From the NCBI GenBank assembly GCA_049514215.1, contig JBEKVI010000021.1:1-64000 (forward strand): a stretch of 64,000 nt of DNA, written 5' to 3'. Positions 29,823-62,593 of the stretch are shown here, one piece after another. The notes beneath the pieces are model-generated. The model made no database searches and was not told the origin of the DNA. It saw nothing but the letters and a program-made list of their open reading frames with translations. A program made the position numbers and the translations under genes. This stretch comes from Burkholderiaceae bacterium. Its GTDB lineage: Bacteria > Pseudomonadota > Gammaproteobacteria > Burkholderiales > Burkholderiaceae_D. Each line of letters begins with the position of its first letter. The first letter of the stretch is position 1.

Positions 29823-29844
29823 GCACCCTCCTTAAGGGATCAAC

Positions 29845-33336: not shown

Positions 33337-33381
33337 GTCAGCGAGCTTCTGCCATCGCGCACACGTGGGTTACGACGGGCG

Positions 33382-36917: not shown

Positions 36918-36927
36918 TTTTTTTGGC

Positions 36928-38376: not shown

Positions 38377-38411
38377 GCCAAGATACTCCACAAGCATACC
38401 GGCTGGGCTTT

Positions 38412-39293: not shown

Positions 39294-39326
39294 CGCCGCG
39301 CAACACGCGCGCGTGCAGCCGAGGCT

Positions 39327-40115: not shown

Positions 40116-40208
40116 GCGAAACCCGGCAAGCGCTGAGCGCTCCGGGCTTGCAGAATTCGCTTAGAATCAGAACGTGCCGATGTAAGCCAACCCGTTTCGG
40201 ATGCCCGC

Positions 40209-41460: not shown

Positions 41461-41510
41461 GCGGGGTCGAGTTTCGGCTCAGCACAGCGGGAGCCGAAGG
41501 CAATGCACGA

Positions 41511-43951: not shown

Positions 43952-44443
43952 GTGAAGTGGAACGTCGTGGTTTTCTCCGGACTCATTATTCTGGGTCTGG
44001 GTGGTCCGGCCGCAGCACAGGTGGCCGTGTCTGCCGCAAGCGACCAGGAGGCTCTTCTGGTTTCGGGTGACGCGAGGCTTGCCGCAAACAAGCGGCTCGT
44101 CTACGACTTCTGGCGCGAGGTCTTCGAAGGAGGACATCTCGATCTCGCGCCCCAGTATCTCGCGCCCGGATACATCCAGCACAATCCGAACGTCCCCACG
44201 GGGCGTGAAGGCTTCGTTCTCTTTTTCTCCAAGTTTGCCAAGCCCAAGCCCACCGAGGCGCGCATCAAGGCACCTTTGGTCGCGATCGTCGCCGAGGGTG
44301 ATCTGGTGGTCTTTAGCTTTGCCCACGAACTCGCTGATCCCAAGGATGCCTCGCATCACTACACGACGACCTGGTTCGACATGTTTCGCGTGGCCGACGG
44401 AAAAATCGTGGAGCACTGGGACCCCGCCGAAATTAAGCACTAA
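43952..44443 (+). CDS. Secreted SnoaL-like/NTF2-fold protein (ester-cyclase-like)
   Basis: Signal peptide MKWNVVVFSGLIILGLGGPAAAQ. Core YDFWREVFEGGHLDLAPQYLAPGYIQHNP. Confidence 0.6.
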   Translation: MKWNVVVFSGLIILGLGGPAAAQVAVSAASDQEALLVSGDARLAANKRLVYDFWREVFEGGHLDLAPQYLAPGYIQHNPNVPTGREGFVLFFSKFAKPKPTEARIKAPLVAIVAEGDLVVFSFAHELADPKDASHHYTTTWFDMFRVADGKIVEHWDPAEIKH

Positions 44444-44568
44444 TCCTCCGGGCGAGGTGCCTAAGGGGTCCACGGCCCCCGGTTCACCGCAGCCTTTAAA
44501 TCAGCCGGGCGACCAGAGGGACGTTTCGGGAGCGCGTCACAAGCGTTCGGGGATGGTTCTGCCGCAAT

Positions 44569-44584
44569 TGGCATGAACTCTGCT
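44569..44584 (+). promoter_or_regulatory. Candidate sigma54 (-24/-12) promoter TGGCAT-N6-TGCTT upstream of the allophanate hydrolase gene
   Basis: GG at 44570-44571 and GC at 44582-44583 are 11 nt apart as in the TGGCAC-N5-TTGC consensus. ATG at 44621. Confidence 0.4.
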
Positions 44585-44620
44585 TGTGTTCCATGTGGTA
44601 TACCAGTCGGCGCCTCCCCC

Positions 44621-46357
44621 ATGCCCCTATCGCTTCCCCTGCAGGAAAAGCTGCGGCACTTTCATGAAAGTGCCGATCATGCAGCTCCTTCGATCTGGAT
44701 TACGCGCGGGCCTCAGTATCTGCTTGCCAACGCGAGTGATCAGGGTGGGGCGCTTGCCGGCAAGCTCGTGGCGGTCAAGGACAATATCGATGTCGCCGGC
44801 TTTCCGACGACGCTGGCGTGCCCGCCCATGACCTATCAGCCCACGCGTTCGGCGCGGGTCGTGGAGCGCCTGGTTCAGGCGGGGGCGCTCGTCGTGGGCA
44901 AGACCAATCTTGACCAGTTCGCCTGCGGATTGGTCGGCACCCGCTCTCCCTATGGTGCCGTACCCAATGCCTTTTTGCCCGAGTACATCAGCGGCGGGTC
45001 GAGCTCGGGTTCGGCCGTGGCCGTGGCTTTGGGACTGGTCGACATTGCGCTCGGTACCGATACGGCAGGCTCAGGCCGAATCCCGGCCGGCTATAACAAC
45101 ATCGTGGGGCTAAAGCCCTCGCGCGGCCTAATTAGCGCCCGCGGTGTCTTTCCCGCTTGCCAGCATCTCGACTGCGTCTCGATCATGACGCGCGAGGTGG
45201 GATTGGCGGCCGAGGTGTTAAGGGTTTGCGCGGGAGCCGATCGCGAAGACCCGTTCTCCCGGGCGCTTCCCCTTTTGCCCGGGTTTGTCGCCGAATCCTT
45301 CCAGTTCGGGGTACCCGGTGCCAAACAACTGGAGTTCTTCGGCGACGCCTTGTCTGCCGAGGCCTTTGGCCGGGCGCGGGCGCTACTGGCCGGGCTTGGC
45401 GGGCGCGAGAATACGATCGACTTTGCGCCTTTGGCCAAGGCCGCTGACGCGCTCTACGAAGACGCTTGGGTGGCCGAGCGCTATGCAGCCATTAGGTCCT
45501 TCTTCGATCGTCAGCCCGAGGCCATCGATCCGGTGGTGCGCGCCATTATCGAGCGCGGCAGGCACCATTCTGCGGCAGATCTCTTTGACGCGATGGTGCG
45601 CATGGGCCACTGGCATCAGCAGGCCCAAGCCCTCTGGGACGGGCTCGACGTGCTGGTGGTGCCTACGGCGCCTAACCACCCGACGATTGCCGAAGTGCAA
45701 AGCGATCCCGTCGAAACCAATCGACGTCTGGGCGTCTACACCAACTTCGTCAATCTCCTGGATCTGGCGGCGGTCGCCGTTCCGGCATCGATGCGTCCGG
45801 ATGGCCTTCCTTTCGGGATCACGCTCATCGGTCCTGCTGGCAGCGAGTGGCGTCTGTTGGATCTGGCGAAGCGCATCCACGCCGCCACGGGGCTTGCGGG
45901 AGGATTGGTGGGCGAGCCGGAAGTCTCCACCGGACCCATGGCACGCGCGCCAGGCGCGATCGTCCGGGTGGCAGTGGTGGGCGCGCACCTCGATGGACTG
46001 CCCTTAAACGGGCTCCTACGCTCGCGGGGCGCGCGACTGGTGTGCCTGACGAGCACGGCTCCCGTCTATCGCCTCTACGCGCTTCAGGGAACAAGGCCCG
46101 CCAAACCGGGACTCGTGCGCCAGGGCGCATCCGGCAAGGCCGGGCTTGCGATCGAAGCCGAGATCTGGGAGCTGCCCACGGCGCACTACGGTGCCTTTGT
46201 CGCCGAGATTCCGGCGCCTTTGGGCATCGGCATGATCGAGATGGCCGACGGCAGTCGCGTGCAGGGCTTTCTGTGCGAAGCAGCGGCCGTCGAGAACGCG
46301 CTCGACATCTCCCATTTCGGGGGCTGGCGCGCGTACCTGAAGCATTCGAGCACATGA
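44621..46357 (+). CDS. Allophanate hydrolase (AtzF-like: amidase-signature domain + C-terminal allophanate-hydrolase domain)
   Basis: Amidase signature GGSSSGSAVAVALG...GTDTAGSGRIPA. About 130-aa C-terminal extension (VGAHLDGLPLN...) typical of AtzF. 578 aa. Confidence 0.8.
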   Translation: MPLSLPLQEKLRHFHESADHAAPSIWITRGPQYLLANASDQGGALAGKLVAVKDNIDVAGFPTTLACPPMTYQPTRSARVVERLVQAGALVVGKTNLDQFACGLVGTRSPYGAVPNAFLPEYISGGSSSGSAVAVALGLVDIALGTDTAGSGRIPAGYNNIVGLKPSRGLISARGVFPACQHLDCVSIMTREVGLAAEVLRVCAGADREDPFSRALPLLPGFVAESFQFGVPGAKQLEFFGDALSAEAFGRARALLAGLGGRENTIDFAPLAKAADALYEDAWVAERYAAIRSFFDRQPEAIDPVVRAIIERGRHHSAADLFDAMVRMGHWHQQAQALWDGLDVLVVPTAPNHPTIAEVQSDPVETNRRLGVYTNFVNLLDLAAVAVPASMRPDGLPFGITLIGPAGSEWRLLDLAKRIHAATGLAGGLVGEPEVSTGPMARAPGAIVRVAVVGAHLDGLPLNGLLRSRGARLVCLTSTAPVYRLYALQGTRPAKPGLVRQGASGKAGLAIEAEIWELPTAHYGAFVAEIPAPLGIGMIEMADGSRVQGFLCEAAAVENALDISHFGGWRAYLKHSST

Positions 46358-46403
46358 TGGGATTCCTTTTTTCCAACGCCGGCCTTCCACAGAAGACATC
46401 ACC

Positions 46404-47435
46404 ATGACCGATACAAACGATGATTTGGGTGTGCGCTGGAAAAGCGGCGATGTGCGGACGGGCCGTCGGCGTTTTGTCGGACTTGCAGGCGCGTCAGCCG
46501 CCGTCGCCTTGGCGCCTTGGCGCGCAGCGCGCTCCGAGTCGGGCACCAAGGTGCGCATCGGCTACTGGCCGATCGCAGCGGGGCTGCCGTTTTACGCAGC
46601 TCTCGAGAAGGGCTACTTCAAGGAGGCCGGCCTTGATGTCGAAGGGGTGAAGTTTGCCGGTGCGCAGCAAGTGATGGAAGCGATGCTTTCGGGGCGCTGC
46701 GACGGCAGTGCCAATGGCACGGGATCGGCCAATCTCGCCATCGGCGAGATCGCCTCGCCTGGCCTGTTGAAGATCTTCGCATCGAATCCGAGCAACGCGA
46801 GCGCGGTCCTCGACGAATTCCTGGTGGCCAGCGCAAGTCCCGTGAAATCCATCTCCGAACTGAAGGGCAAGAGGGTCGGCTCGGGTCCGGGCATCCAGAA
46901 CGTGACACTGGCCAAGGCCGTGCTCGAGAAGGCCGGCGCAAGCGGAGCCACGGTGGTGGAGTTGCCCATCGCAGCGCACGTCGGTGCGCTGGCTGCCGGG
47001 CAGATCGATGCGGTGTACACGCTCGAGCCCACAGGTACGGTCGGGCGTCTTGCCGGATCCACGCGCATCCTCGAGCCCGGCGTCATCGCCCACTATGTCC
47101 TGGGCGATCCGCAGGCACCGTGGTTCGGCGGTTCGGCCTCCCTGACGTCGTCATTCATCAAGGACCATCCGGCGGAGACGAAGGCGTTTATCGCGGCCTA
47201 TGCCCGCGGCATCGATCTGGTCAGAAAGGACCCCAACGAAGCGCGCAAGTATCTCAAGGGGTATACGGCGATCGACGGAAGCCTGACCCAGGAGGTGCCG
47301 CTGGCAGCCTATAAGCTCTCGACCGAGTTCACGCATTCCGACGTCGAGATGTTCCAGAAGTTCTTCGACCTTTTCTCCGACAAGGGTATCTTCAAGTCGC
47401 GCGTACTGGTCGAACCGATGCTCTATAAGGGATGA
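46404..47435 (+). CDS. ABC transporter substrate-binding protein, NitT/TauT (NMT1/SsuA-like) family
   Basis: Tat-like signal RRRFVGLAGASAAVALA. NMT1-like fold. Confidence 0.75.
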   Translation: MTDTNDDLGVRWKSGDVRTGRRRFVGLAGASAAVALAPWRAARSESGTKVRIGYWPIAAGLPFYAALEKGYFKEAGLDVEGVKFAGAQQVMEAMLSGRCDGSANGTGSANLAIGEIASPGLLKIFASNPSNASAVLDEFLVASASPVKSISELKGKRVGSGPGIQNVTLAKAVLEKAGASGATVVELPIAAHVGALAAGQIDAVYTLEPTGTVGRLAGSTRILEPGVIAHYVLGDPQAPWFGGSASLTSSFIKDHPAETKAFIAAYARGIDLVRKDPNEARKYLKGYTAIDGSLTQEVPLAAYKLSTEFTHSDVEMFQKFFDLFSDKGIFKSRVLVEPMLYKG

Positions 47436-48265
47436 CCATGGAGACTTCCAGTGGCGATCTGGTGGCACCCGAAGCGTTAGCGCAAAAGCCGGTGAGACGA
47501 TTCACCCTGGGGTCGGTTGCGACCGCACTCATCCCGCTTCTGGGGCCGCTTGCGCTTTTCATCGTCTGGGACGTCATGGTGCGTGCCCGCATCGTCAGTC
47601 CCGTCCTTTTACCGCTACCCCTGGCCACGCTCGTCACGCTCGTGACGGGCATGTTCTCGGGCTCGCTGCTTCAGGATTTCGGCTACACCCTCTTGCGCAC
47701 TCTGGAGGCCTTTGGTCTGGCCGCAATTGTGGGCGTGCCCCTGGGCGTTCTTTTGGGCAGTAACGAGCGCGCCTATCGCAGCGTGGAATTCCTGATTGAC
47801 TTCTTCCGATCCACGCCCTCGTCGGCCCTGATCCCGCTGTTTCTCATGATCTTCGGTGTCTCCGACATCAACAAGGTCGCCATCGCCGCATTTGCGGCAC
47901 TCCTCGTCATCCTCTTTAACAGCGCCTATGGCGTCATCAATGCGCGCAAGCAGCGCGTCATGGCCGCTCAAGTCATGGGCGCCTCGCGCTGGCAGATCTT
48001 CCGGGACGTCCTCATCTGGGAGAGCCTGCAGCCGACTTTCGTGGGCCTGCGCAGTGCCATCTCGATGGCCTTGGTCATCGTCATCGTAGCCGAGATGTTC
48101 ATCGGCTCCGAAAACGGGCTCGGCCATCGCATCATCGATGCGCAGCAGGTACTGAACGTGCGCGACATGTATGCGTCGATCCTCGCCGCCGGAGGCCTGG
48201 GATATGCGCTCAACATCCTTTTTCTCGTGCTCGAAAAACGCATCGTCCACTGGAGCGGCAGATAG
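47432..48265 (+). CDS. ABC transporter permease, NitT/TauT family
   Basis: Six TM segments. ATGA overlap with the upstream binding-protein gene. Confidence 0.8.
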   Translation: MTMETSSGDLVAPEALAQKPVRRFTLGSVATALIPLLGPLALFIVWDVMVRARIVSPVLLPLPLATLVTLVTGMFSGSLLQDFGYTLLRTLEAFGLAAIVGVPLGVLLGSNERAYRSVEFLIDFFRSTPSSALIPLFLMIFGVSDINKVAIAAFAALLVILFNSAYGVINARKQRVMAAQVMGASRWQIFRDVLIWESLQPTFVGLRSAISMALVIVIVAEMFIGSENGLGHRIIDAQQVLNVRDMYASILAAGGLGYALNILFLVLEKRIVHWSGR

Positions 48266-48267
48266 TC

Positions 48268-49086
48268 GTGCGTCCCGTCAATCCCCCCCTAGCCGATACC
48301 ACCCCAACCCCGGTGTTTGTCCCGGGGCCGCCCGGAACACACATTACCATCCGCGGGCTCACCAAGTTCTTCGCGGGGCGGCCCCTCTACCAGAACTTTG
48401 ATCTGGACATTCCTAAGGCCAGCATCGTCTCGGTGTTTGGGCCCAATGGATGCGGAAAGTCGACGCTCATCAACATGATCGCCGGGCTCATTCCGATCGA
48501 CTCGGGCTCGATCCTGTTCGACGGAAAATCGCTCGCCCAAACGAAGATCGGCTATGTCTTTCAGAACTACCGCGAGGCGCTTTTCCCGTGGCTGCGCACG
48601 ATCGACAACATTGCCTATCCGCTGCGTCTGGAGGGCAAAACGCGCGCCCAGGTCGAGCAGCGCGTGGCCGAACTGGTGGCCTCGTTTGACGTCAAGTTCG
48701 ATCTGCACCGCTATCCCTACGAGCTCTCCGGCGGCCAGCAGCAGACCGCCTCCATCATGCGGGCTCTTGCTCCCCAGCCGGAAGTGCTCTTTCTGGACGA
48801 ACCCTTTTCGGCACTGGACTTCGAGATGACCCTGTTCATCCGCGAAAAGCTCCAGGAGGTCTTCATGGCGACCGGCACCACGATGATGCTGGTCTCGCAT
48901 GACCTCGAGGAGGCCGTCTACCTGGCCGACCAGGTTCTCCTGTTGACCAAGCGCCCCACCCGCATTGCCGAAATTCTGACCTACGCCGATCACCGTCCGC
49001 GCACCGTCGAGACACTCTCGGCACCCAGTTTCATCCATACCAAGGCCAAGAGCCTTGAAATCTTCCAGCGCGAAGTCCGCCGATAG
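48268..49086 (+). CDS. ABC transporter ATP-binding protein, NitT/TauT family
   Basis: Walker A GPNGCGKST, signature LSGGQQQ, Walker B LFLDEPFSALD. Confidence 0.85.
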   Translation: MRPVNPPLADTTPTPVFVPGPPGTHITIRGLTKFFAGRPLYQNFDLDIPKASIVSVFGPNGCGKSTLINMIAGLIPIDSGSILFDGKSLAQTKIGYVFQNYREALFPWLRTIDNIAYPLRLEGKTRAQVEQRVAELVASFDVKFDLHRYPYELSGGQQQTASIMRALAPQPEVLFLDEPFSALDFEMTLFIREKLQEVFMATGTTMMLVSHDLEEAVYLADQVLLLTKRPTRIAEILTYADHRPRTVETLSAPSFIHTKAKSLEIFQREVRR

Positions 49087-49101
49087 AAAGACACGATCCC
49101 G

Positions 49102-49284
49102 ATGCAGCCCAGTGAATACGAAGAGTACGTGGCCGCCGCCTTAACGCTTGCGGGCTATTCGTTTGATGCGCCGCAGCGCGCGTTGATCGCGGCCGAGTTC
49201 GCGCGCATCGCCGGCATCGCCGCCGACTTTGTCGACGAACCCCTGGCCGTGGAGCTCGAGCCGATCACGCTGTTTCGTCCATGA
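49102..49284 (+). CDS. Small (60 aa) AtzG-like subunit partner of the downstream amidase
   Basis: 60-aa ORF whose stop overlaps (ATGA) the amidase start. Position and size match AtzG of atzG-atzE-atzH operons. Confidence 0.5.
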   Translation: MQPSEYEEYVAAALTLAGYSFDAPQRALIAAEFARIAGIAADFVDEPLAVELEPITLFRP

Positions 49285-50729
49285 CTGTGACGACCGCCCA
49301 GCAAATCGGCGCGGCGATCCGTGTGGGATCCATCAGCGCGAGCGCGGTCGTGGAGGATTGTCTGGAACGCATCGCAAGGCGCGATCCGGTGCTCAACAGT
49401 TTTACCGAGGTCACTGCCGAGCGCGCGCGCCGTGAGGCGGCCGAGATCGATGCCCTGGCGGCCCGGGGAGCTGCGCTGCCGCCGCTCGCCGGAGTACCGT
49501 ATGCGGTGAAGAATCTGTTTGATGTCGAGGGGGTGATCACGCTCGCCGGGGCCAAGATCAATCGCGACCGCGCGCCTGCCAAGGCCGACTCGGTGCTCGT
49601 AGGACGCATGCGCGCGGCCGGCGCCATCCTGGTTGGCGCGCTCAATATGGATGAACATGCCTACGGCTTCACCACGGAGAACACACACTTCGGGGCGACG
49701 CGCAATCCGCATGATCCTAGCCGGACTGCGGGCGGCTCTTCCGGAGGCTGCGGAGCCGCGGTGGGCGCCGGACTCGTTCCGATTGCGCTGGGCTCGGACA
49801 CCAATGGTTCGATTCGCGTGCCGTCCTCGCTTTGCGGCGTCTTTGGTCTGAAGCCAACCTATGGCAGGCTGCCACGTACCGGAACGTTTCCGTTCGTGCA
49901 CGGCCTAGACCACCTCGGACCCTTTGGGGCTTCGGTGGGCGATCTCGCCTTGTCTTACGATGCCATGCAGGGTTTTGATGCGGGCGATCCGGCCTGCGCA
50001 CCCCGTGGCTTGGAGCCGACCTTTGCCGCCGTGCGGCGCGGTGCGCCGCCTCCCGACGGAGAACGCATGGCCGTCTTGGGCGGACACTTCGAGCGATGGG
50101 CGTCTCCACGGGCGCGCGCGGCCACTGCTGAGGTCGCGGCTGCTTTGTGCGTCACGCACCGGGTCGAATTGCAGGGGGCCAACCAGGCCCGTGCCGCGGC
50201 CTTCATCACCACCGGCTCGGAGGGCGGCGCACTGCATCGGCATGCCCTCATCGAGCGCTACGCCGAGTTCGAGCCGCTCTCTCGCGACCGGCTGGTCGCA
50301 GGCTCGCTCATACCGGCCAGTTGGTACATCGCAGCCCAGCGCATCCGCGCGCGCGTCTTAAGTGAGGCACTTGCCCTGTTTGAGCAGTACGAGGTGTTGA
50401 TTGCGCCTGCGACGCCCGTCTGTGCGCCGGTGCTGGGCACCGAGTGGCTCGAGATCAATGGCCAGCGGGTTCCCGCGCGCGCAAGCCTGGGGCTACTGAG
50501 TCAACCGATCTCCGCACTGGGACTGCCGGTCTGCACCGTTCCGATCTGGCCTAGCCTGGTGCAAGAGAGCGATCCCGCGGACCGGCCGCGGCCTGCCCAG
50601 GACCCGGACGGTCATCTTCCCCTCGGTGTGCAGATCATCGCGGCTCCGTGGCGAGAAGACCTGTGTCTGATGGTGGCAGCCCGCCTGGAGGCCTTGGGCA
50701 TCGCGCGTTGCATGAGCCCCTTGAGCTAG
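49281..50729 (+). CDS. AtzE-like amidase (1-carboxybiuret hydrolase family; Ser-cisSer-Lys amidase signature)
   Basis: [68 protein letters not shown]. Close to AtzE as I recall it. Confidence 0.7.
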
Positions 50730-50740
50730 AGGACCGATCC

Positions 50741-51124
50741 ATGGAAATCAATCGACCCGAAGTCTTAGCCGAGGTCACAGCGGCCTTTGAGAGCTACGAG
50801 AAGGCCCTCGTGGGCAACGATGTCGCCATGCTCGATCGCCTGTTTCGCGATGCGCCCGAGACCCTGCGTTACGGCGCCACCGAGAACCTCTATGGCTTTG
50901 CCGCCATTTGTGCGTTTCGCGCCGGTCGCTCGCCGCAGGGCCTCAAGCGACGGGTGCTGCGCTGCGTGATCACGACCTACGGACGCGACTTCGCCACAGC
51001 CAACATCGAATTCCAGCGCGAAGGCCAAAGCGCGGTGGGTCGTCAAAGCCAGACCTGGGTGCGTTTTGACCTGGGGTGGCAGGTGGTCGCAGCACACGTG
51101 AGTTTCCTTGCGATGGCGGCCTGA
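50741..51124 (+). CDS. AtzH-like NTF2-fold protein (DUF3225)
   Basis: 127 aa ([28 protein letters not shown]...). Immediately follows the AtzE-like gene. Confidence 0.55.
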
Positions 51125-51126
51125 AG

Positions 51127-51864
51127 ATGCGCATTGCGGCACCCAAGCGGCGCGATCCAGGCGAGCCCACGCTCGCCGACCAGGCCTACGAGCGCATCAA
51201 GGCGGAGATCTTCGATTTCGAGCTGGTCCCGGGCGACCGTTTCTCCGAAGCCGAACTTGCGCAGCGCCTGGGGATGTCGCGCACCCCGGTGCGCGAAGCC
51301 TTAAGCCGGCTGCAGCGCGAAGGCTATCTGGAAGTCCATTTCAAAAGCGGCTGGTCGGTCAAACCCTTCGATTTCGAGCAGTTCGAGCATCTCTACGACT
51401 TGCGCATGGTCTTGGAGACGACCGCAATCCGGCGCCTTTGCGAGGGAGCGGAAACGTTGATTCTGGCCGAGCCGATCGAGGAGCTCAAACGCATCTGGCT
51501 CGTCCCCAAGGAAGGCCGGGAAAGTGAGGGCTCCAAGGTCGCTCGGCTGGACGAGAACTTTCACGCCGCCCTGGTCGAGGCGGCCGGCAATCCCGAAATC
51601 GCGCGAGTACACAGAGCCGTCACCGAGCGCATCCGCATCATCCGGCGCCTGGATTTCACCCAGGCTGCGCGCATCGACAGCACCTACGACGAACATGCCC
51701 AGATCCTGCGCGTGGTGCTGGCGCGGCGTGCGCCCCAGGCCGAACTCCTTTTGCGTTCGCACATCGAACAGAGCAAAGCCGAGGTGCGCAAGATCACGCT
51801 TCACAAGCTCTATACGGTGCGAGCCGCCTCGGCCGAGCGCCATCGCGTCAAGCCCGAACTCTGA
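51127..51864 (+). CDS. GntR-family transcriptional regulator (FCD-type C-terminal domain)
   Basis: HTH GDRFSEAELAQRLGMSRTPVREAL. 3-nt gap after the AtzH-like stop. Confidence 0.8.
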   Translation: MRIAAPKRRDPGEPTLADQAYERIKAEIFDFELVPGDRFSEAELAQRLGMSRTPVREALSRLQREGYLEVHFKSGWSVKPFDFEQFEHLYDLRMVLETTAIRRLCEGAETLILAEPIEELKRIWLVPKEGRESEGSKVARLDENFHAALVEAAGNPEIARVHRAVTERIRIIRRLDFTQAARIDSTYDEHAQILRVVLARRAPQAELLLRSHIEQSKAEVRKITLHKLYTVRAASAERHRVKPEL

Positions 51865-51993
51865 ACGCCCGACGCCGGCAGGATCGGCTTCACAAGTCCC
51901 CTCTTGCCCGCGAGCGCGCGAGCGCCGTTGACATGGAGCGCCCCCTCTGCGAGCGTATGCGCCTAAAGTAGGCTCCGGCGAAGGAGACAGGCT

Positions 51994-53172
51994 ATGACAT
52001 TGCGACGTCGCGATCTTCTGGCGGCAGCCGGAAGTCTCGGTTGGATATCGGTCCTTAATGCCTGCGGCGGCGCGAATACCGAATCGGGAAACACGCCGCC
52101 GGCCTCGAACATCGATTTGAAGCTCCTAGCCGGCAGCGCACGGCAAAGCCCGGTCAGCAACGATGGTGTGGGCAGCGCTGCGACCTTCACCTCGCTTTTT
52201 TCCTGCGTGACCAACTCCCTCGGCAATATCTACGTCGGCGATACCGATGCGCTACGCATCGTCAGCCCGACGGGTGCGGTCTCGACCGTGGCAGGGCTTG
52301 CGAACAGTTCCGGCTACGCGGACGCGTTGGGATCGTCGGCCCGCTTTGGAATTCTGGGGGCGCTCGCGATCGATCAGAGCGGCAATATTCTGGCTTCCGA
52401 TCAGTACAGTTTCGCAATACGCCAGATCACCCCCGCAGGACAGGTGAGTACCCTCATCGGGGTGACCGGACGCACCGTCCCAGGCGCAGGTGGCGCCAAC
52501 GTCCCTGTCAACGGAACGCTCACCAACATCACGCTGCCCTTTGGCAGCTACGCTGGCGCCATCGCCCTCGATGGCAGCGGAAACATCTATCTCGCCTTTG
52601 CATCCGAGATCCTGAAGGTGTCCACGACGGGCGTGGTGACCACCTTCGCCGGCAGCGCGACCCAAGGCACCACCGACGGCGTCGGAAGCGCCGCCACGTT
52701 TGGCGTCATCACCGCGATGACCAGCGATGGCCTGGGCAATCTCTACGTCACCCAAAACACCGGTGCGGTCGAGACGGCGGGCGTGGCGAGCGTTGCCGCG
52801 ACGGCCTCGGTGCGCAAGATCACACCCGGCGCCGTGGTCAGCACCATCGCCGGGGGCACCAGCGGCAACGCCAACCCGTATGGATACAAGAACGGAGCGG
52901 CGGCTCAGGCCCAGTTCACGCTGCTCGAAGGTATTGCCCTGGATCCCGCAGGTGATTTCTACCTGGCCGACAATGGCAATGGCGTGGTGCGCAAGCTATC
53001 GGCGGGCGGTACTGTGACGACCGTGGCGGGAACCACCGATCCTGTTGGGACCACGATCGTGCCTGGCCCTCTTCCGGCGGAGATCCTGCCTCCTGTCGGC
53101 CTTGCCCTCGCGGGAAGCAAGCTCGTCATCCTCTGTCCGAACGCGGTCCTTCAGACGACCGGCTTGCCTTAG
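51994..53172 (+). CDS. NHL-repeat-like beta-propeller lipoprotein
   Basis: Lipoprotein signal MTLRRRDLLAAAGSLGWISVLNAC. Repeated Gly/Thr/Ala-rich blades (SPTGAVSTVAG..., ITPAGQVSTLIG..., VSTTGVVTTFAG..., ITPGAVVSTIAG..., LSAGGTVTTVAG). Confidence 0.55.
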   Translation: MTLRRRDLLAAAGSLGWISVLNACGGANTESGNTPPASNIDLKLLAGSARQSPVSNDGVGSAATFTSLFSCVTNSLGNIYVGDTDALRIVSPTGAVSTVAGLANSSGYADALGSSARFGILGALAIDQSGNILASDQYSFAIRQITPAGQVSTLIGVTGRTVPGAGGANVPVNGTLTNITLPFGSYAGAIALDGSGNIYLAFASEILKVSTTGVVTTFAGSATQGTTDGVGSAATFGVITAMTSDGLGNLYVTQNTGAVETAGVASVAATASVRKITPGAVVSTIAGGTSGNANPYGYKNGAAAQAQFTLLEGIALDPAGDFYLADNGNGVVRKLSAGGTVTTVAGTTDPVGTTIVPGPLPAEILPPVGLALAGSKLVILCPNAVLQTTGLP

Positions 53173-53458
53173 AGAGTGGATAGACGTCACGCGTCCTTCG
53201 GTTGGCCTTTCTCGATCTTTTTCGAGTTGCGTTGTAAGCGAGATATTGTCATTGTTTTTCAGCCCGCTCGAACGCCAAGATGAAAAGAGTGCGCAGAGGC
53301 ATCCGCTTTTGCGCGTCGCAAAGACCTCCAGGGTGTCGTGCTCGCCGGTCACCCCCAAAACTCGTCCGGCTACAATCATCCCAGGTGTCCGGGATCGGAA
53401 GATTCGGCCGTTTTGAAGAGCTGCGCGGGCCCGCCCCTATCAAACGAGGAGTCAGACC

Positions 53459-53848
53459 ATGGCGATACAAGGTATGAGCCACTTCACCGTCCTGACGAAT
53501 GACGTGCCGGCGACCGAGCGCTTTTACTGTGATCTTCTCGGTCTTGAAGTAGGCTGGCGTCCGGATTTCAACTTTCCGGGGCTCTGGTTGTACTCCGCCG
53601 GTGTCCCCATTCTCCACGTCATTGGCGGCCGTACGGAGGCAGAACTCCGAGCTGGCGTCATCGATCACATGGCGTTTGACGCCGTTGACCTTCCGACCAC
53701 TGTCGAACGACTGAAGAACCAAGGCGTGAAATACGAGCTGCGCCGGACCGCAGGAAGCGCCCAAGGAATCTGGCAACTGTTCTGCTTTGATCCCAACGGC
53801 GCAAAAGTTGAACTCGATTTCAAGGCAAGTGAATCGCCGCCTGCCTGA
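53459..53848 (+). CDS. VOC/glyoxalase-bleomycin-resistance family protein
   Basis: 129 aa (HFTVLTNDVPATERFYCDLLGLEV...HMAFDAVDL). GAGGAG RBS. Confidence 0.7.
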   Translation: MAIQGMSHFTVLTNDVPATERFYCDLLGLEVGWRPDFNFPGLWLYSAGVPILHVIGGRTEAELRAGVIDHMAFDAVDLPTTVERLKNQGVKYELRRTAGSAQGIWQLFCFDPNGAKVELDFKASESPPA

Positions 53849-53892
53849 GAGCCTAAGACGCGCCGATTCGACACCCGGGATGGCAAGACGGC

Positions 53893-54573
53893 CTAGACCG
53901 TGACCGGGCCAAGCGCTTCCTCTAAGGCCGACAACGGGGCGGTCCATCCCACGATGGCGCCCTGGGCCGTGATCATCTCGAGGGTCGCTTTCTTGAAGGC
54001 CGGGAAATAGCTCTCGGTTGCGTCCTCGATGAGGAGCCCGTTATAGCCGCGATCGTTGGCCTCGCGCATGGTGGTCTGCACGCACACTTCGGTCGTCACG
54101 CCGGCAAAGATCAGGTGCGTGATCTCGCGCGCGCGCAGCACCTGCTCGAGTGGCGTGGCGTAAAAGGCGCCCTTACCGGGCTTGTCGATGACGAGTTCGC
54201 CAGGCTTCGCCGCGAGCTGGGCCACGATGTTATTGCCCGGCTCCCCGGTGATGAGCACGCGTCCCATCGGGCCCGGGTCCCCGATGCGAAGCGAAGGTGA
54301 TCCGCGCAGGCGCTTGGCCGGCGGGCAGTCCGAAAGATCGGGGCGGTGGCCCTCGCGGGTGTGGATGACGGCGATCCCGTGCGCACGGCAGGTTTCAAGA
54401 AGCGCGAAGACCGTCGGCACGATCGCCTCGAGCCGGCTGACGTCATTGCCCAGCGACGCGCCAAATCCGCCGGGCTCGACGAAGTCGCGCTGCATGTCGA
54501 TGACGATCAATGCCGTGTGGGCGGGGTCGAACGCGTATTCGAAAGGGGTGGCTGCAAGGCGGCGCTCGGTCAT
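53893..54573 (-). CDS. Isochorismatase-family cysteine hydrolase (BiuH/TrtA/RutB-like), paralog A
   Basis: Catalytic triad context [12 protein letters not shown] (Asp), DKPGKGAFY (Lys), [12 protein letters not shown] (Cys). 226 aa. Confidence 0.75.
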
Positions 54574-54590
54574 GGCAAATCGATTCCGGA

Positions 54591-56189
54591 TCAGTGTGTC
54601 AGCGCGGGAGATTCCGAGTGCCCGGCCATGTGTCGCCCGATCTCGCGCATGTCGGCATTCTGGACATCAGTCTCATAGACCAAGCGGCCCTCGGACATCA
54701 CGGCGATCCGGTCAGCGAGCTCGAAAAGCTCGTCTAAGTCCTCGCTGACCAAAAGCACCGCCGTCCCGCCGTTGCGTGCCGCGATGATGCGATCGTGAAT
54801 CTCGCTGACGGCGGCGAAATCGAGGCCGAACACGGGATTGGCGACAATGAGCAAGGATACCGGAGCCGAAAGCTCGCGCGCGAGCACTGCGCGCTGCACG
54901 TTGCCTCCCGACAACGTTCCGATGGCGGCCTTGGGCCCCTGCGTTTTGACTTTGAACTCACGAATCCAGCGTTCGGCCTGTGTGCGCGCCGCGCGCCGGT
55001 TAAGCCAAATGCCCATTGCCAGAGGGGCCTGGTCGAAGTTGCGTAGCGCCATGTTGTCGGCCACGCTCATGCGGGCGACGCAGGCGTTTTTCAGGGGCTC
55101 TTCGGGCAGGCTAAAGACGGCGAAGCTGCGGATCTCGTCGCGCTTGGAGTGGTACGGCAGGCCATCGACTGTGATCGATCCCGAACTGGGTTCGCGTTGA
55201 CCGATCAAGGCTTCCACCAGTTGACGCTGCCCGTTGCCCGACACGCCGGCGATGCCGAAGATCTCTCCCGGCCGAACCGAAAGGCTCACCTTCTCAACGG
55301 CCGGCATGCCGATGTCATCTTCGACGACGAGATCGGTGACCAAAAGACGTGGTGCGACATCGGCCTTGAGCGGCGTTTTCTTGGTGTCGGACTGCGGAAT
55401 CTGGCGCGAGCCCACCATCATCTCGGCCATGCGCTGCGCATCGAGCTCGGCAATCGGTGCGCCGCCCGCGAGCCGGCCGCGCCTGAGCACCGTGACGGCG
55501 TCGGCAAAGCCCAGGACCTCGCGAAATTTGTGCGTGATCATGAGAACCGAAAGCCGGCCCGACTGTGTCATCTCCTTGAGCATCCCGAGCACTTCGTCGG
55601 CCTCCTCGAGCGTGAGCACGGAGGTGGGTTCGTCTAAGATCATGAAGCGGCTCTTCAGATAGAGCTGCTTTAGGATCTCGAGCTTTTGTTTCTCGCCTGC
55701 GGCCAACCTTGAGACGGGGCGGTCGAGCGGCACCTGGAACGGGACCGATTGCATGAAGGCCGCGATGCGCTCGCGCTCGTCGCGCCAGCGGATGACCGCG
55801 GGCACGTCGGCACGCGACATGACGAGGTTTTCCGTGGCCGTCATGCTGGGTACGAGGGTGAAATGCTGGTAGACCATGCCGATGCCCAACGCGTGCGCAT
55901 CCTGGGGGGTCGAGATGACCTGTTCGCGGCCGTCGACCATGATCTGACCTTCGTCGGCCAGTTGGTAGCCGACGAGACATTTGACGAGCGTGCTCTTGCC
56001 GGCTCCGTTTTCGCCGAGCAAGGCGTGAAACGATCCCGGCATGACCCGCATCGAGACATCCTCGAGCGCAGCAAATGAGCCAAAGCGCTTGGTCAGGTGC
56101 AAGACTTCGACTCCGACGGCGCGCTCGCTTGGGACCGCCGGATGGGTCTCGCTGCTGACCACCCTGAGCATTTCCGAAGGAATCGACAT
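54591..56189 (-). CDS. ABC transporter ATP-binding protein with duplicated ATPase domains (CUT2/BMP-type)
   Basis: Two Walker A sites (GENGAGKST; GVSGNGQRQ) and two signature/Walker B sets. 532 aa. Confidence 0.85.
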
Positions 56190-56196
56190 GGGCTTC

Positions 56197-56868
56197 CTAG
56201 AGGGCGACGGTCAGTTCGGCGCTGGTTGCGACGGCACCGAACACGCCGCCTTGCATCTTGATCATGTGCAGCGCTGCCCGATGATTGCCCGCGTCGGTGG
56301 CCGCGGTGCAGTCGGCCAGCAACAGGCATTCGAACCCGCGATCGTTGGCGTCGCGCATGGTGGTATGGACGCACACGTCGGTGGTGATGCCCGTGAGAAT
56401 CAGGTTGCGGATGCCACGCGTGCGCAGCACCAGTTCCAGGTCAGTCGCGTAGAACGAGCCCTTGCCGGGTTTGTCGATCACGATTTCGCCGGGATGGGGC
56501 GCAAGCTCGGCGATGATCTCCCAGCCCGGCTCACCGCGCACCAGGATCTTGCCGCAAGGACCCGGATCGCCGATACCGGCACCGATCTGGCGCGAGCGCC
56601 AGCGCTTGTTGGCGGGCAGATCCGACAGATCGGGACGGTGGCCTTCACGGGTGTGGATGATGAGATAGCCCGCCTCGCGCATGGTCGCAAGCAGCGACTT
56701 GATGGGGCCGATGGGCGCGCGCGTGAGCGCCAGATCGTAGCCCATCTTGTCGACGTAGCCGCCTTCGCCACAGAAGTCGGTTTGCATGTCGATGATGATG
56801 AGCGCGGTGTTGCCGGGACGTAGATCGCCGTCGAAGGGCCACGGATAGGGGTCGGCTTGAACGAACAT
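56197..56868 (-). CDS. Isochorismatase-family cysteine hydrolase (BiuH/TrtA/RutB-like), paralog B
   Basis: [33 protein letters not shown]. 223 aa. Start overlaps the upstream permease stop (TAATG). Confidence 0.75.
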
Positions 56869-57788
56869 TATTTTTGGATCGAAAGTTCGCCGGGGGCTCC
56901 GGCCAGCGCGCGGGTGCGCGAGGAGGTCATGATCATGATTGCCAGGGTGAGCGCGTAGGGTGTCGCGTTAAAGAGGTAGTAGCCGCTCGTGATGCCGACC
57001 GACTGAAGTGCCGGACCCAGAGCTCCCGCACCCCCGAAGAGCAGGGCGGCCCAGAAGCAGTTCACGGGATTCCAGCGCGCGAAAATGACGAGCGCGACGG
57101 CGATGAGTCCCTGGCCGCTCGAGAGGCCCTCGCTCCAGCTGCCGGGGTAATAGAGGGAGAGGAAGGAGCCTCCGATTCCCGCAAAGATGCCGCCCACGCC
57201 GGTGCAGCCGATGCGCACGAGATTGACGCGGTAGCCCATGGCGCGCGCGGCTTCGGCGCTGTCTCCGACGATGCGGACCACCAAGCCGATGCGCGTCGTG
57301 CGAAATGCGTAGGCCAGCCCAATGGTCAGGACGATGCCGATCAAGAACAGGGGGTTGATCACCAACGCCGCGCGCAGTGGGGCCAGATCGCTCCAGTTTC
57401 CGAGCGCGAGCCCCGGAAGGAGCTTGGCCTGGGGCTGGATGAAGGGCTTGCCCAGATAGAACGCAAGCCCGGTCCCAAAGAGCATGAGTGCGATGCCTAC
57501 GGCGATGTCGTTGACGCGCTTGAGACTGCAGAGCATGCCGTGCAAAAGGCCAAAGAGTAATCCCACCCCGCCTGCGGCGATCACCCCCCACCAGGGGCTG
57601 CCGGAAAGATAGGAGATCGCATAGCCAGTCATGGCGCCCATGACGAGAATGCCCTCCAGACCCAGATTGATGCGTCCGCTGCGCTCGGTGATGCACTCAC
57701 CTAGGCTCACGAACAAGAAGGGCGTGCTCACGCGAATCGCGCCCGAGAAAATCGCCAGCGGCACGCCCCACCAGCCGATCCCGTTCAT
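56868..57788 (-). CDS. ABC transporter permease (BMP-family importer)
   Basis: Start taken at [16 protein letters not shown] (idx 31 of ORF 56868..57881). Multiple TM segments. ATGA overlap with the upstream permease. Confidence 0.75.
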
Positions 57789-58891
57789 GACGTGGCCTCC
57801 TTGGCTAAGGGCTGTGGCGTGGCCGCGATGCTCGTTGGGGCCGGCTTGGCCCAGTTGATGCGGCCGTAGAGCGTTTCGCAAGCCAGGATGAGCAAGAAGG
57901 CAATGCCCTCAAGAACGAGCACGGCCGCATCAGGCATGTCCAGACGCCGCTGCAGCATCCCGCCGCTGGCTGAAATGCCGCCCAGCAGGATGGCCACGGG
58001 CACGATGGCAATGGGATTGTGGCGCGCGATGAACGCGACCAGGATCCCGGCGTAGCCGTAGCCTGCGATGAGTGACGCGTTGGCCGCGCCATGGACGGCG
58101 GCGACTTCCACCGCGCCGGCCAAGCCCGCCGCAAGTCCTCCGAGCGCGCAGGCCAGAAGCACAAGCCCCCCGGTCGGAAGTCCCGCAAGCAGGCCCGCAC
58201 GCAGGTTTCCGCCAGCCACCCGCATGGCAAAGCCGATGGTCGTGCGATACACGAGGGCATAGGAGAGGATGCAGGCAATGATGCCAAAGCCCAGCCCCCA
58301 GTGGACATTGAGACCGGGCAGATTGCCCAGGCGATTCTCATCGCCAATGGGAAAGGTGGAGGGCTTGTTCAGGCTCGCCGGGTCGCGCAAGACACCTTCG
58401 ACCAAGTGATTGAAAAGGGCGATGGCGATGTACGCCAACAGAAGGCTCGAGATGGTCTCGTTGACGCCCCGGTAATGGCGCAGGCCGCCGGCCAACATGA
58501 TCCAGACCGCGCCCGTGACCATGCCTGCCAGAAGCATTCCGGTATCGACGATGAAAGCACCACTACCCGAGAGCAGATGTCCCATGACGGCAGCCGCAAG
58601 CCCGCCCAGAACGAGTGCGCCTTCTCCACCGATGATCATGAGTCCGACCTGGGCAGGCAGGGCGACACACAGCGCGGTGAGGATGAGAGGCGCAGCCCTC
58701 GAGAGTGTGTTCTGCCAGGAAAAGCCGCTCGCAAACCCGCCCCGGTAGATGAGTGCGTAGACCTCGAGCGGATCTTTGCCGAGTACCCAGACGAAAGCTC
58801 CAAAAAGAACGGCTGCCGCGCACAGCGCAATCAGCGGCACCGCGACCGCCTCGACAGCGGGTCCGAGCTGCGCTCTGCCGGGCCGTTCCAT
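57785..58891 (-). CDS. ABC transporter permease (BMP-family importer)
   Basis: 368 aa, 8-10 TM segments. Confidence 0.8.
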   Translation of the reverse strand: MERPGRAQLGPAVEAVAVPLIALCAAAVLFGAFVWVLGKDPLEVYALIYRGGFASGFSWQNTLSRAAPLILTALCVALPAQVGLMIIGGEGALVLGGLAAAVMGHLLSGSGAFIVDTGMLLAGMVTGAVWIMLAGGLRHYRGVNETISSLLLAYIAIALFNHLVEGVLRDPASLNKPSTFPIGDENRLGNLPGLNVHWGLGFGIIACILSYALVYRTTIGFAMRVAGGNLRAGLLAGLPTGGLVLLACALGGLAAGLAGAVEVAAVHGAANASLIAGYGYAGILVAFIARHNPIAIVPVAILLGGISASGGMLQRRLDMPDAAVLVLEGIAFLLILACETLYGRINWAKPAPTSIAATPQPLAKEATS

Positions 58892-58898
58892 GGGAGCT

Positions 58899-60026
58899 CT
58901 AGATCTTGCCGACCACGCCGGTCACCAGATAGTTCATCTGCTCCAGAACCGGGTCCGTCTGCTGATAGGACGTGCCCGAGGCAATCACGGTCTTGCCCGC
59001 GTTGTCCACGAGGGGACCTTTGAAGATCACGAAGTCGCCCTTCACCATCGAGGCCTTGATGCCATCGGCGGTGCTGCGCGCCGTGGCGCTGGCGCCTGGT
59101 CCGTAGGGGGACATCTTGACGAAGCCCTCCTTGAGGCCGCCGCGCAGGAAGTTCTTCATCGGTGCGCCCGACATCGCGTCATTGACGTGTACGGTGTAGG
59201 GCGTAAGCCAGTTCCACTCCGCCCCCGTCAGATAGCCCTTGGGTGCGAGCGCGGACTGGTTTGCGTGGTAGCCGCACACAAAGATGCCACGCCGCTCGGC
59301 CGTCTCGACGATGACTTTCGGGCTGTCGACGTGGCACGTGATGACGTCGACGCCTTGGTCGATGAGACTGTTGGCCGACTCCGCCTCCTTCACGGGCAGC
59401 GACCAGTCGCCGGTGATAATGAGCTGGGTCGTGATCTTGGGATCGACGCTGCGCGCGCCCAGGGTAAAGGCATTGATGTTGCGCAGCACCTGGGGAATCG
59501 GTTTGGCGGCGATGAAGCCGAGCTTCTTGCTCTTGCTCGCATGGCCTGCGACGACGCCGTTGAGGTACTGGCACTCGTCGATGTAGCCGAAGTAGCTGCC
59601 GGCATTTTTGGGATGCTTGCCTTCGGTCCACATGCCGCCGCAGTGGGCAAAGCGCACCTTCGGATACTTGGCGGCCATGCGCAGCATGAAGGGGTCGAAA
59701 TAGCCGAACGAGGTCGCAAAGATCAACCCGGCGCCGTCTTGTTCGACCATCGAGGACATGGTGTTTTCAACATCGGTGGTTTCAGGTACCTTTTCCTGCT
59801 CGACCACGGTCACGCCGGGCAGCTTCTTGATCTGTGCGGCTGCCTGGGCTTGCGCCTGGTTGTAGCCGTAGTCATCGCGAGGGCCCACGTAGATCACGCC
59901 GACCGTGAGTTTGTCGGCGGCGAACGCGCGCGAAAGCGAAAGTGGACCGACCGCGCTGGCCGCTGCGCCCATCGCGATTTGCTTTAGCACAGCACGGCGG
60001 GACGGGCTCTTGGGCGATGAACTCAT
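58899..60026 (-). CDS. BMP-family (Med/PnrA-like) ABC transporter substrate-binding lipoprotein
   Basis: Tat-type signal SRRAVLKQIAMGAAASAVGPLSLSRAFA. BMP fold (LTVGVIYVGPRDDYGYNQA...). AAGGAGA RBS on the minus strand. Confidence 0.8.
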   Translation of the reverse strand: MSSSPKSPSRRAVLKQIAMGAAASAVGPLSLSRAFAADKLTVGVIYVGPRDDYGYNQAQAQAAAQIKKLPGVTVVEQEKVPETTDVENTMSSMVEQDGAGLIFATSFGYFDPFMLRMAAKYPKVRFAHCGGMWTEGKHPKNAGSYFGYIDECQYLNGVVAGHASKSKKLGFIAAKPIPQVLRNINAFTLGARSVDPKITTQLIITGDWSLPVKEAESANSLIDQGVDVITCHVDSPKVIVETAERRGIFVCGYHANQSALAPKGYLTGAEWNWLTPYTVHVNDAMSGAPMKNFLRGGLKEGFVKMSPYGPGASATARSTADGIKASMVKGDFVIFKGPLVDNAGKTVIASGTSYQQTDPVLEQMNYLVTGVVGKI

Positions 60027-60088
60027 GCCGTTTTCTCCTTATCCATGGAAAATAAAATCTGGGATACCAGACGGTGCGCAACATGGAA

Positions 60089-60105
60089 TGCAATAGGCAT
60101 GCCAG
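60089..60105 (-). promoter_or_regulatory. Candidate sigma54 (-24/-12) promoter CTGGCATGCCTATTGCA (minus strand) for the BMP-ABC/hydrolase operon
   Basis: Minus-strand read matches TGGCAC-N5-TTGCA with GG and GC 11 nt apart. About 60 nt upstream of the ATG at 60026. Confidence 0.5.
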
Positions 60106-60252
60106 CCGCCAGACCGTGCAGGACCCGTCTCAAGGGCACGCCCTGGGCTTCGCGGCCGAAGCCGCATCCACATTGATTCTTAAGGGCGCCCGCGCGTAGT
60201 GTTAAGCGCAGCCGATGGGGCAGGTGATGAGGGCAGGCCTCGAGCCTGCAGC

Positions 60253-60281
60253 AGGCGCGTGGCCCGCTTTGGTGCACGCGC
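60253..60281. promoter_or_regulatory. Inverted repeat GGCGCGTG-N13-CACGCGCC about 150-190 bp upstream of the sigma54 element (candidate enhancer/activator site)
   Basis: Perfect 8-bp arms read from the sequence. Distance from the -24/-12 element is typical for bacterial enhancer-binding-protein sites. Confidence 0.25.
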
Positions 60282-60359
60282 CAAACCGTTCTAGTGCGGA
60301 TCGGTGCCGAGATGGGGGATGGCCGAAGTCATCGCCGCGGGCACCCGGGAATCCCCTGT

Positions 60360-62462: not shown

Positions 62463-62593
62463 AACGAAGCGGTTTTTCAGAAATGTTTCAAATGGTCGAA
62501 TTCATGCTGCGGCCTTATATATTTCAAGGTCTTGGGTGGCCCTAGCCACTGTTCTGTAATATGCGGGGCTTAAGCTCGTCCTACCATTACATC

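Follow-up and report, generated by a model that had tools for sequence, protein, structure and literature searches.

The stretch of DNA considered here (the window, 64,000 nucleotides) comprises positions 1 to 64,000 of contig JBEKVI010000021.1 of a Burkholderiaceae bacterium (assembly GCA_049514215.1). Between its housekeeping genes relA and ppk, at 43.9-60.4 kb, lies a block of about 16.5 kb consisting of two operons that converge. The half on the plus strand carries atzF, an ABC importer of the NMT1 type, atzG-atzE-atzH and a GntR/FCD regulator; the half on the minus strand, which faces it, has biuH and trtA interspersed among the genes of a BMP-type ABC importer. The block is probably a chromosomal metabolic island for nitrogen scavenging from linear ureides (triuret and biuret), inserted at the convergent ppk/relA junction in one subclade of an uncultured Burkholderiales lineage. 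This reading is built on features that are seen directly: which genes are present, the families to which their products belong, the specificity residues, the presence/absence synteny, and the conservation of promoters and palindrome. Triuret and biuret are impurities of urea fertilisers and products of uric-acid oxidation, and the triuret route was established only in 2020.

An original prediction, made from the DNA letters, had described the region as a possible composite island bounded by relA and ppk, with a complete triuret/biuret/carboxybiuret route to ammonia, two different importers and accessory NHL and VOC genes. Profile scans of the open reading frames (ORFs) of the window located every gene it had named where it had been placed: both flanking genes, the NMT1/SsuA-type and BMP-type ABC sets and the accessory genes are all present. 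The complete route is likewise borne out, as far as sequence can tell, by curated family cut-offs and published specificity residues; its NTF2-like enzyme is present but is of the AtzH type, and no TrtB-type decarboxylase accompanies it. The genes of the block and its two flanks are the following:

41355..43898, plus strand: relA, left flank, core genome (TIGR00691, 540 bits; colinear with 14353-12216 of L086, the contig of a relative)
44621..46357, plus strand: atzF, allophanate hydrolase (NF006043, TIGR02713)
46404..47435, plus strand: NMT1/SsuA-type periplasmic binding protein with a Tat signal (Pfam NMT1, 75 bits; TIGR01728, 106 bits, below its cut-off)
47432..48265, plus strand: ABC permease of importer 1 (profile match)
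48268..49086, plus strand: ABC ATPase of importer 1 (profile match)
49102..49284, plus strand: atzG-like small subunit, 60 aa (borderline Pfam AtzG-like match, position)
49281..50729, plus strand: atzE, amidase of the 1-carboxybiuret hydrolase family (NF006631, PDB 6C62)
50741..51124, plus strand: atzH, of the NTF2-like 1,3-dicarboxyurea decarboxylating amidohydrolase type, Arg66 class (PF11533, 6BJT)
51127..51864, plus strand: GntR/FCD-family regulator (profile match; Pfam GntR and FCD on the identical gene of L001)
53893..54573, minus strand: trtA, triuret hydrolase type (6XIX match, TrtA-type residues)
54591..56189, minus strand: double-domain ABC ATPase of importer 2 (profile match)
56197..56868, minus strand: biuH, biuret amidohydrolase (NF050097, BiuH-type residues)
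56868..57788, minus strand: permease 2 of importer 2 (profile match; JGI call of 306 aa)
57785..58891, minus strand: permease 1 of importer 2 (profile match; JGI call)
58899..60026, minus strand: BMP/PnrA-family binding protein of importer 2 with a Tat signal (Pfam Bmp, 143 bits)
60360..62462, minus strand: ppk, right flank, core genome (TIGR03705, 934 bits; colinear with L086)

The trtA product is assigned to the triuret-hydrolase type, TrtA, and a preference for triuret over biuret is predicted for it. It scores 322 bits against the TrtA structure 6XIX, versus 223 and 198 bits against BiuH structures, and is 68% identical to the crystallised TrtA; alignment with 6XIX reveals that the catalytic triad D24/K129/C162 and the V157-T158 cis-peptide motif are kept. 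At the six positions that discriminate TrtA from BiuH (residue list from Tassoulas et al., PMC7948467) a four-way alignment gives F35, N41, A134, E160, Y187 and I205, all six of the TrtA type, and with Q202, which is also as in TrtA, seven of seven tested specificity positions are identical to TrtA. BiuH of the island has Y, Y, S, D, T and V at the same six positions, all BiuH-type, is 76% identical to R. leguminosarum BiuH and reaches 424.9 bits with the NF050097 equivalog (cut-off 370), below which its TrtA-like paralogue remains with 255.6 bits. Readings of the two isochorismatase-like genes as guanylurea hydrolase or RutB were ruled out by scores and specificity residues. The two genes show 75-78% nucleotide identity over three segments (window 54047-54525, 56336-56817), which correspond to the conserved catalytic core, despite the fact that the proteins are just 52% identical overall.

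Species-representative genomes (GTDB) were scanned with the TrtA protein, which gave 80 trtA loci, 44 of them with full 10-kb flanks. The species of the window is not among these genomes, and the best TrtA match among the representatives searched is 77%.

Regarding the downstream enzymes, AtzF exceeds the cut-offs of both NF006043 (773.2 bits versus 487) and TIGR02713 (739.8 versus 511). Its start at 44621, giving 578 aa, agrees with the NCBI and JGI calls, and it is identical to protein P0121, on which the C-terminal AH_C domain (PF21986) is recorded. AtzE reaches 641.8 bits with NF006631 (cut-off 461) and 506 bits with AtzE of Pseudomonas sp. ADP (PDB 6C62), and the alignment to 6C62 contains the amidase-signature GGSSGG motif. 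AtzH gives 192 bits with PF11533 and 168 bits with PDB 6BJT, and the nine pocket residues defined in PMC6219798 (Tyr22, Arg46, R63, R66, R73, F94, R96, Q106 and Q108) are all identical to those of Pseudomonas sp. ADP AtzH. The atzG-like ORF, whose stop overlaps the start of atzE, has the size and position expected of AtzG, a small subunit derived from GatC, and recurs in relatives: its position is kept in L084 and L090, and the L084 homologue is flagged as AtzG-like.

In the proposed pathway, the chemistry of which is taken from PMC7948467 and PMC6219798, two binding-protein ABC importers (a BMP/PnrA-type and an NMT1/SsuA-type system) would import the ureide substrates, presumably triuret and biuret. 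TrtA would deamidate triuret to 1-carboxybiuret, AtzE-AtzG would deamidate this compound to 1,3-dicarboxyurea, AtzH would turn the latter into allophanate, and AtzF would finally split allophanate into ammonia and CO2. BiuH would produce allophanate both from imported biuret and from the biuret formed by spontaneous decarboxylation of carboxybiuret, for which a half-life of about 20 min has been published; flux would be expected to run via AtzEGH rather than BiuH. Counterparts of the importer 1 ATPase with 84-89% identity occur in the clusters of Variovorax and Hydrogenophaga as well as in the relative whose Ppk is 83% identical to that of the window (the 83% relative).

Some points count against this assignment of functions. 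The activities are assigned by sequence, BMP-family binding proteins classically bind nucleosides, and the atzG-like ORF scores 23.8 bits with Pfam AtzG-like, just under the cut-off of 24, and found no meaningful match among PDB sequences. Besides, the AtzH-like protein also passes the NCBIfam equivalog of HpxZ (oxalurate catabolism) with 197 bits versus 135, and because of this the substrate of the AtzGEH part could be oxalurate or some other ureide.

Oxalurate closely resembles 1-carboxybiuret in structure, and the hpxWXYZ genes, the oxalurate/oxamate genes of Klebsiella, contain a three-gene set homologous to atzGEH of the island. It might be proposed, then, that atzGEH, perhaps together with the NMT1-type importer, encodes an HpxXYZ-like amidohydrolase of oxalurate or purine ureides, the island being a broader scavenger of purine and uric-acid breakdown products for which triuret and biuret are one input. 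In line with the HpxZ match, clusters of atzGEH occur widely in the absence of atzD and, among enterobacteria, have ggt and allantoate-hydrolase genes as neighbours (PMC6219798), and the trtA clusters of comammox Nitrospira adjoin the oxalurate genes allFGHK (PMC12625717). However, the small subunit gives just 16 bits with HpxX (cut-off 70), and there is no HpxW (GGT-like) gene in the island, where the partners are trtA, biuH and atzF. The scores of AtzE and AtzH with the Pseudomonas sp. ADP enzymes and the intact AtzH pocket also argue against an oxalurate enzyme, as does the tie of the cluster to trtA, whose product is a known AtzEG substrate; moreover, arginine at position 66 of the AtzH-like protein tracks the presence of AtzE in 37 of 37 trtA loci. 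An oxalurate role is for these reasons considered unlikely, and the triuret/biuret reading is preferred.

The evidence that the block is an island comes from the ppk/relA junction in relatives. Ppk homologues and their contigs, ranked by Ppk identity to the window, form the following series:

Ppk 87% and 83% (L082 to L085): island directly after ppk
Ppk 79% (L086): nothing between ppk and relA, 12-bp gap (12133-12146)
Ppk 78% (L093): nothing between ppk and relA, 9-bp gap (9115-9125)
Ppk 78% (L092): nothing between ppk and relA, 4-nt overlap (9112-9115)
Ppk 77% (L088): DUF2939 gene between ppk and relA (12115-12793)
Ppk 77% (L087): MerR-DnaJ-VIT1-PAS/GGDEF genes between ppk and relA (10135-15421)
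Ppk 74% (L089): amidase and two other ORFs between ppk and relA (12091-15125)

Among the relatives compared, only the two closest to the window (Ppk 87% and 83%) share its block, a pattern of presence and absence that agrees with the acquired or modular island envisaged in the original prediction. The convergent ppk/relA junction is a hotspot for cargo in this lineage, and the block qualifies as an island in the sense of a variable region. In blastn comparisons, window 36366-43822 is colinear with L086 20486-12216 and window 60493-63999 with L086 12006-8503, the window carrying about 16.7 kb extra. Homology with the 83% relative (L090) extends over 44569-51840 and 53893-60105, and it begins exactly at the sigma54 promoter of the atzF operon, at 44569.

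Other observations count against the island reading, or at least against a recent or classical transfer. The gene upstream of atzF in the 83% relative is M50-like, not relA, and because the atzF side has no relA neighbour there, the left boundary of the island is not fixed. G+C is flat (about 0.61-0.66) across the window, with no island signal in GC or GC skew, and GC3 of the island genes (0.71-0.84) overlaps that of the flank genes (0.71-0.81), so the compositional comparison with the flanks that had been suggested as a check gave no sign of recent foreign origin. A tRNA scan of the window found none, the island borders contain no direct or inverted repeats apart from the trtA/biuH paralogy, and no integrase, transposase or other mobility gene is found among the annotated ORFs of the window. 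The block is not a classical mobile genomic island: mobility genes, tRNA or repeat borders and deviant composition are all missing.

These features would also suit a block that is vertically inherited core genome, lost by the relatives without it, rather than an acquired island, since composition cannot be distinguished from that of the flanks and the proteins of the island, with identities of 68-91% to their counterparts in the 83% relative, have diverged about as far as Ppk (83%). Nevertheless, three relatives have ppk and relA overlapping or at most 12 bp apart with no remnant of the block, three more carry unrelated cargo at the same junction, and neither relA nor ppk is close to trtA at any of the 80 loci of other genomes. 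The TrtA proteins most similar to that of the window (up to 77%), moreover, have a scattered distribution that includes Beta- and Alphaproteobacteria, Rokubacteria, Methylomirabilota and Nitrospira. Core-genome status with repeated loss is regarded as very improbable, and the best reading is that the block entered the junction hotspot once, in the ancestor of the subclade, after which it was inherited vertically and received small secondary insertions.

Three genes make up these secondary insertions:

43952..44443, plus strand: secreted SnoaL-like protein (Pfam SnoaL_2, 48 bits)
51994..53172, plus strand: NHL-repeat Tat-lipoprotein (Pfam NHL/TEN_NHL)
53474..53848, plus strand: VOC/glyoxalase-family protein (Pfam Glyoxalase, 40 bits; 124-aa JGI gene in L001)

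They are later lineage-specific additions, because homology with the 83% relative covers just the two segments given above, and none of the 80 trtA loci has a homologue of any of the three. Together, the genes for the NHL and VOC proteins form an insertion of about 2 kb between gntR and trtA (window 51865-53892), two genes which abut or overlap in the 83% relative; the NHL gene is missing in L084/L090, where gntR and trtA abut. The SnoaL gene, also absent from the 83% relative, is outside the conserved module. The ORF 53249-53947 (minus strand), antisense to the VOC gene, was rejected as spurious.

Most of the 80 trtA loci share the core order BMP-permease-permease-biuH-ATPase-trtA, which is kept across Burkholderiales, Alphaproteobacteria, Rokubacteria, Methylomirabilota and Nitrospira, and BiuH of at least 60% identity is encoded at 64 of the 80. 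In many Comamonadaceae and their relatives (Variovorax, Ramlibacter, Hydrogenophaga, Hylemonella and others) the order atzF-importer 1-(atzGE)-atzH-BMP...trtA-gntR is colinear on one strand. Because the same genes form one colinear cluster there, the two loci of the window are the halves of a single recurrent supercluster, one half of which is inverted in the window lineage, resulting in the convergent operons. The two gene sets of the original prediction stand, but the term composite overstates the case in view of the single colinear cluster of Variovorax, Ramlibacter, Hydrogenophaga and others.

The locus belongs to a cluster type that has already been described, of which it is a well-preserved example with inverted halves and NHL/VOC/SnoaL insertions. 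For Rhodoferax, Variovorax, Methylibium and others, Esquirol et al. (2018) reported atzF-(ABC)-atzGEH clusters that have 'ABC transporters and amidase enzymes' downstream on the same strand, and left their function open because TrtA was not yet known (PMC6219798). TrtA, clustered with biuH, was characterised by Tassoulas et al. (Dec 2020), and AtzEG acts on its product (PMC7948467); a 2025 study described atzF-biuH-trtA-trtB-bmpA-nupABC clusters in nitrifiers (PMC12625717). The clusters of Comamonadaceae and other Burkholderiales (PMC6219798, Fig 6C) have the same gene set and the same atzF-ABC-atzGEH order as the window, and their downstream 'amidases' are BiuH and TrtA (Ramlibacter L038, L073, L032, L041 and L054), but they are one-stranded, whereas the window has two convergent operons with the NHL and VOC genes between them.

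The triuret/biuret cluster of Herbaspirillum sp. BH-1 and its relatives (trtA-biuH, a bmpA-nupABC-type importer, trtB and atzF; PMC7948467, PMC12625717) has the same core order, with a GntR gene after the core as in the Herbaspirillum metagenome-assembled genome (MAG) L094 and in most of the 80 loci, and the specificity residues of TrtA and BiuH in the window are identical to those of the characterised enzymes. On the other hand, where Herbaspirillum, Paraburkholderia and Massilia have a Cys66-type gene right after trtA, the window has an Arg66 AtzH together with AtzE-AtzG, and in comparison with the Herbaspirillum-type cluster its atzF half is inverted and its operons converge.

The operon atzDGEHF of Pseudomonas sp. 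ADP has homologues of AtzE, AtzH and AtzF and the same sequence from carboxybiuret via dicarboxyurea and allophanate to NH3. It could be supposed from this that the locus provides the lower half of a pathway for cyanuric acid (s-triazines), the more so as its AtzG, AtzE, AtzH and AtzF homologues keep the ADP order save for the importer between atzF and atzG. However, no AtzD/TrzD-type hydrolase is found among the annotated ORFs of the 64-kb window, TrtA with all its triuret-type residues would supply the carboxybiuret instead, and such clusters rarely accompany atzD (PMC6219798), which makes a cyanuric-acid pathway extremely improbable. The locus also differs from the plasmid-borne ADP operon in being chromosomal, in encoding two importers and in having BiuH, owing to which biuret would not be a dead end.

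A side result concerns the AtzH-like proteins. Among the 44 full-flank trtA loci, 13 have atzE, 14 have an AtzH-like gene without atzE, and 17 have neither. According to the legend of Fig. S11 of PMC12625717, TrtB (carboxybiuret decarboxylase) is homologous to AtzH and HpxZ. When the AtzH-like proteins of loci L007-L081 were aligned, with position 66 numbered as in ADP AtzH, this residue was arginine in all 14 trtA loci with atzE (including L077, in which atzE is cut by the contig end) and C, S, V, T, L, Q, F or Y in all 23 loci without it (Fisher p = 1.6e-10, kinship ignored). The loss of one arginine for a substrate with one carboxylate instead of two would be chemically sensible. Non-Arg66 genes begin 6-54 nt after trtA in 12 loci, and in the Herbaspirillum MAG trtA is followed by a Cys66 AtzH-like gene and then by gntR. 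In a neighbour-joining tree, built without bootstrap, the atzE-less L027 and L040 (L66) and L031 (Q66) nest inside the Arg66 clade, which suggests repeated conversion from AtzH to a TrtB-like protein in these Variovorax-type loci. Arg66 is thereby a candidate marker by which AtzH could be told apart from TrtB-like decarboxylases.

In a Massilia MAG (L016 1478-2554) trtA is fused in frame with a non-Arg66 AtzH-like (TrtB-like) domain; P0242, a partial protein, has TrtA and non-Arg66 AtzH-like domains joined by an Ala/Pro-rich linker, and the downstream part of L016 is annotated separately by NCBI as 'HpxZ'. Because they are fused in frame (Rosetta-stone evidence), TrtA and the TrtB-like domain would act in sequence. 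The AtzH-like protein of the window follows atzE and has Arg66, unlike the TrtB type, an AtzH-like protein that works without AtzEG and whose gene comes right after trtA or atzD. Since it is of the AtzH type, the locus is assigned to the AtzEGH branch, with no TrtB-type enzyme, the TrtB class being set by position and residue rather than by the BH-1 sequence.

As regards regulation, four sites accompany the two operons:

44569..44584, plus strand: sigma54-type promoter TGGCATgaactCTGCT for the atzF operon, 37-52 nt before atzF begins
44595..44606, no strand: palindromic operator gTGGTATACCAg, candidate GntR/FCD site (match with at most one mismatch)
60059..60070, no strand: second copy of the palindromic operator, CTGGtATcCCAG on the minus strand (match with at most one mismatch)
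60090..60105, minus strand: sigma54-type promoter TGGCATgcctaTTGCA for the BMP-biuH-trtA operon, 65-80 nt before the BMP gene begins

The two candidate sigma54 promoters of the original prediction are both present. The pattern used (GG and GC elements, TGGCAC-N5-TTGCW spacing) is uninformative by itself, with 77 matches of at most 2 mismatches in the whole window versus 71 expected, but a stricter motif within 230 nt upstream of the BMP gene is found in 21 of 61 related loci versus 0.49 expected, distant Alphaproteobacteria included. The evidence for sigma54 is thus one of position and conservation. A palindrome, (C)TGGTATACCA(G), follows each promoter, 12 nt past the -12 element at atzF and 20 nt past it at BMP, and its 12-mer with at most one mismatch has just two sites in the 64 kb, both right after a sigma54 -12 element. 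The BMP-side copy is a perfect CTGGTATACCAG in L082 and L084; the atzF leaders of the window, L090 and L091 conserve promoter and palindrome while the DNA upstream of them is unrelated; and tgTATACCa-type sequences also come after the promoter in Ideonella, Methylibium and other loci. Operators of the TGGT-N-ACCA type are known for FadR-like GntR regulators, and the palindrome fits this type. GntR/FCD orthologues (at least 50% identity) flank trtA in 23 of the 44 full-flank loci.

Both convergent operons would be read from these sigma54-type promoters, and the GntR/FCD protein of the island would bind the TGGTATACCA palindromes and so control the sigma54 promoters as a substrate-responsive repressor. 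Alongside it there may be an activator of the enhancer-binding type, perhaps NtrC, and nitrogen control of the island is plausible. Less favourable to such control are the absence of any enhancer-binding protein or rpoN gene within the window and the quality of the NtrC-like sites upstream, which are about 4-fold in excess (15 versus 3.4 expected) but all have 2-3 mismatches, a weak hint. In the window (60270-60290, minus strand), L082 and L084 the sigma54 promoter of the BMP operon is preceded, at a distance of 150-230 nt, by a TGCACCAA(A/T)... motif that is conserved in part and could be a half-conserved NtrC-like enhancer site. Scans for sigma70 and terminator consensus sequences gave no more than in shuffled sequence, and an Rfam scan of the whole window, including riboswitches (guanidine, ykkC) upstream of atzF and the NMT1 importer, gave no match. 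The ORF 60023-60277 (minus strand), which overlies the promoter and leader of the BMP operon, was discarded as spurious.

None of the following was found in the searchable literature, which does not include the paper defining TrtB: an explicit pairing of TrtA with AtzEGH in place of TrtB, the circuit of sigma54 promoter and palindrome, and the Arg66 marker.

Some features of the window outside the block can also be mentioned. The relA ORF has 847 aa versus the 751-800 aa called in relatives (window 41355-41700), and its true start is probably internal, downstream of the ORF start, because the NCBIfam alignment starts near residue 110-120. Window 27293-36917 contains two successive gene sets of circularly permuted ATP-grasp, Alpha-E and transglutaminase-like proteins, one of them with an 1163-aa DUF2126 amidoligase-like protein, and this flank is conserved in L086 and L088. 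An RND efflux operon (outer-membrane factor, AcrB-like pump and membrane-fusion protein) with an adjoining TetR regulator occupies 11464-18160 and is followed by recJ (18174-20432). A pair formed by prfB (RF2, 349-aa ORF) and lysS is located at 5228-8608; the RF2 ORF is short, which would fit the programmed +1 frameshift that prfB usually has close to its 5' end.

A wider scheme, quite possible but put forward tentatively, would give atzGEH a native, pre-herbicide job, namely the processing of 1-carboxybiuret derived from natural triuret by TrtA. The AtzH-like protein would have switched between an Arg66 dicarboxyurea enzyme, always found with AtzEG, and a non-Arg66 TrtB-like decarboxylase, always found without AtzEG, right after trtA and occasionally fused to it; the switch would have taken place at least two times within the AtzH clade on loss of AtzE (L027/L040; L031), and the circuit of sigma54 promoter and GntR operator would be the ancestral control for the unit as a whole.

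The known chemistry is left unchanged by this locus, and its value is in annotation, evolution and regulation. It would represent a triuret hydrolase wired to the AtzEGH branch instead of TrtB, with BiuH as a safety net, and the pairing of TrtA with AtzEGH would provide a natural context for the atzGEH trio, the original role of which was left open by Esquirol et al. (2018). If the Arg66 marker holds, annotators could separate AtzH, TrtB and 'HpxZ', names that are now applied indiscriminately. The conserved sigma54 promoter with its palindrome offers a concrete, testable regulatory model, and the pattern of presence and absence indicates that the ability to use ureides moves as a unit into a chromosomal hotspot.

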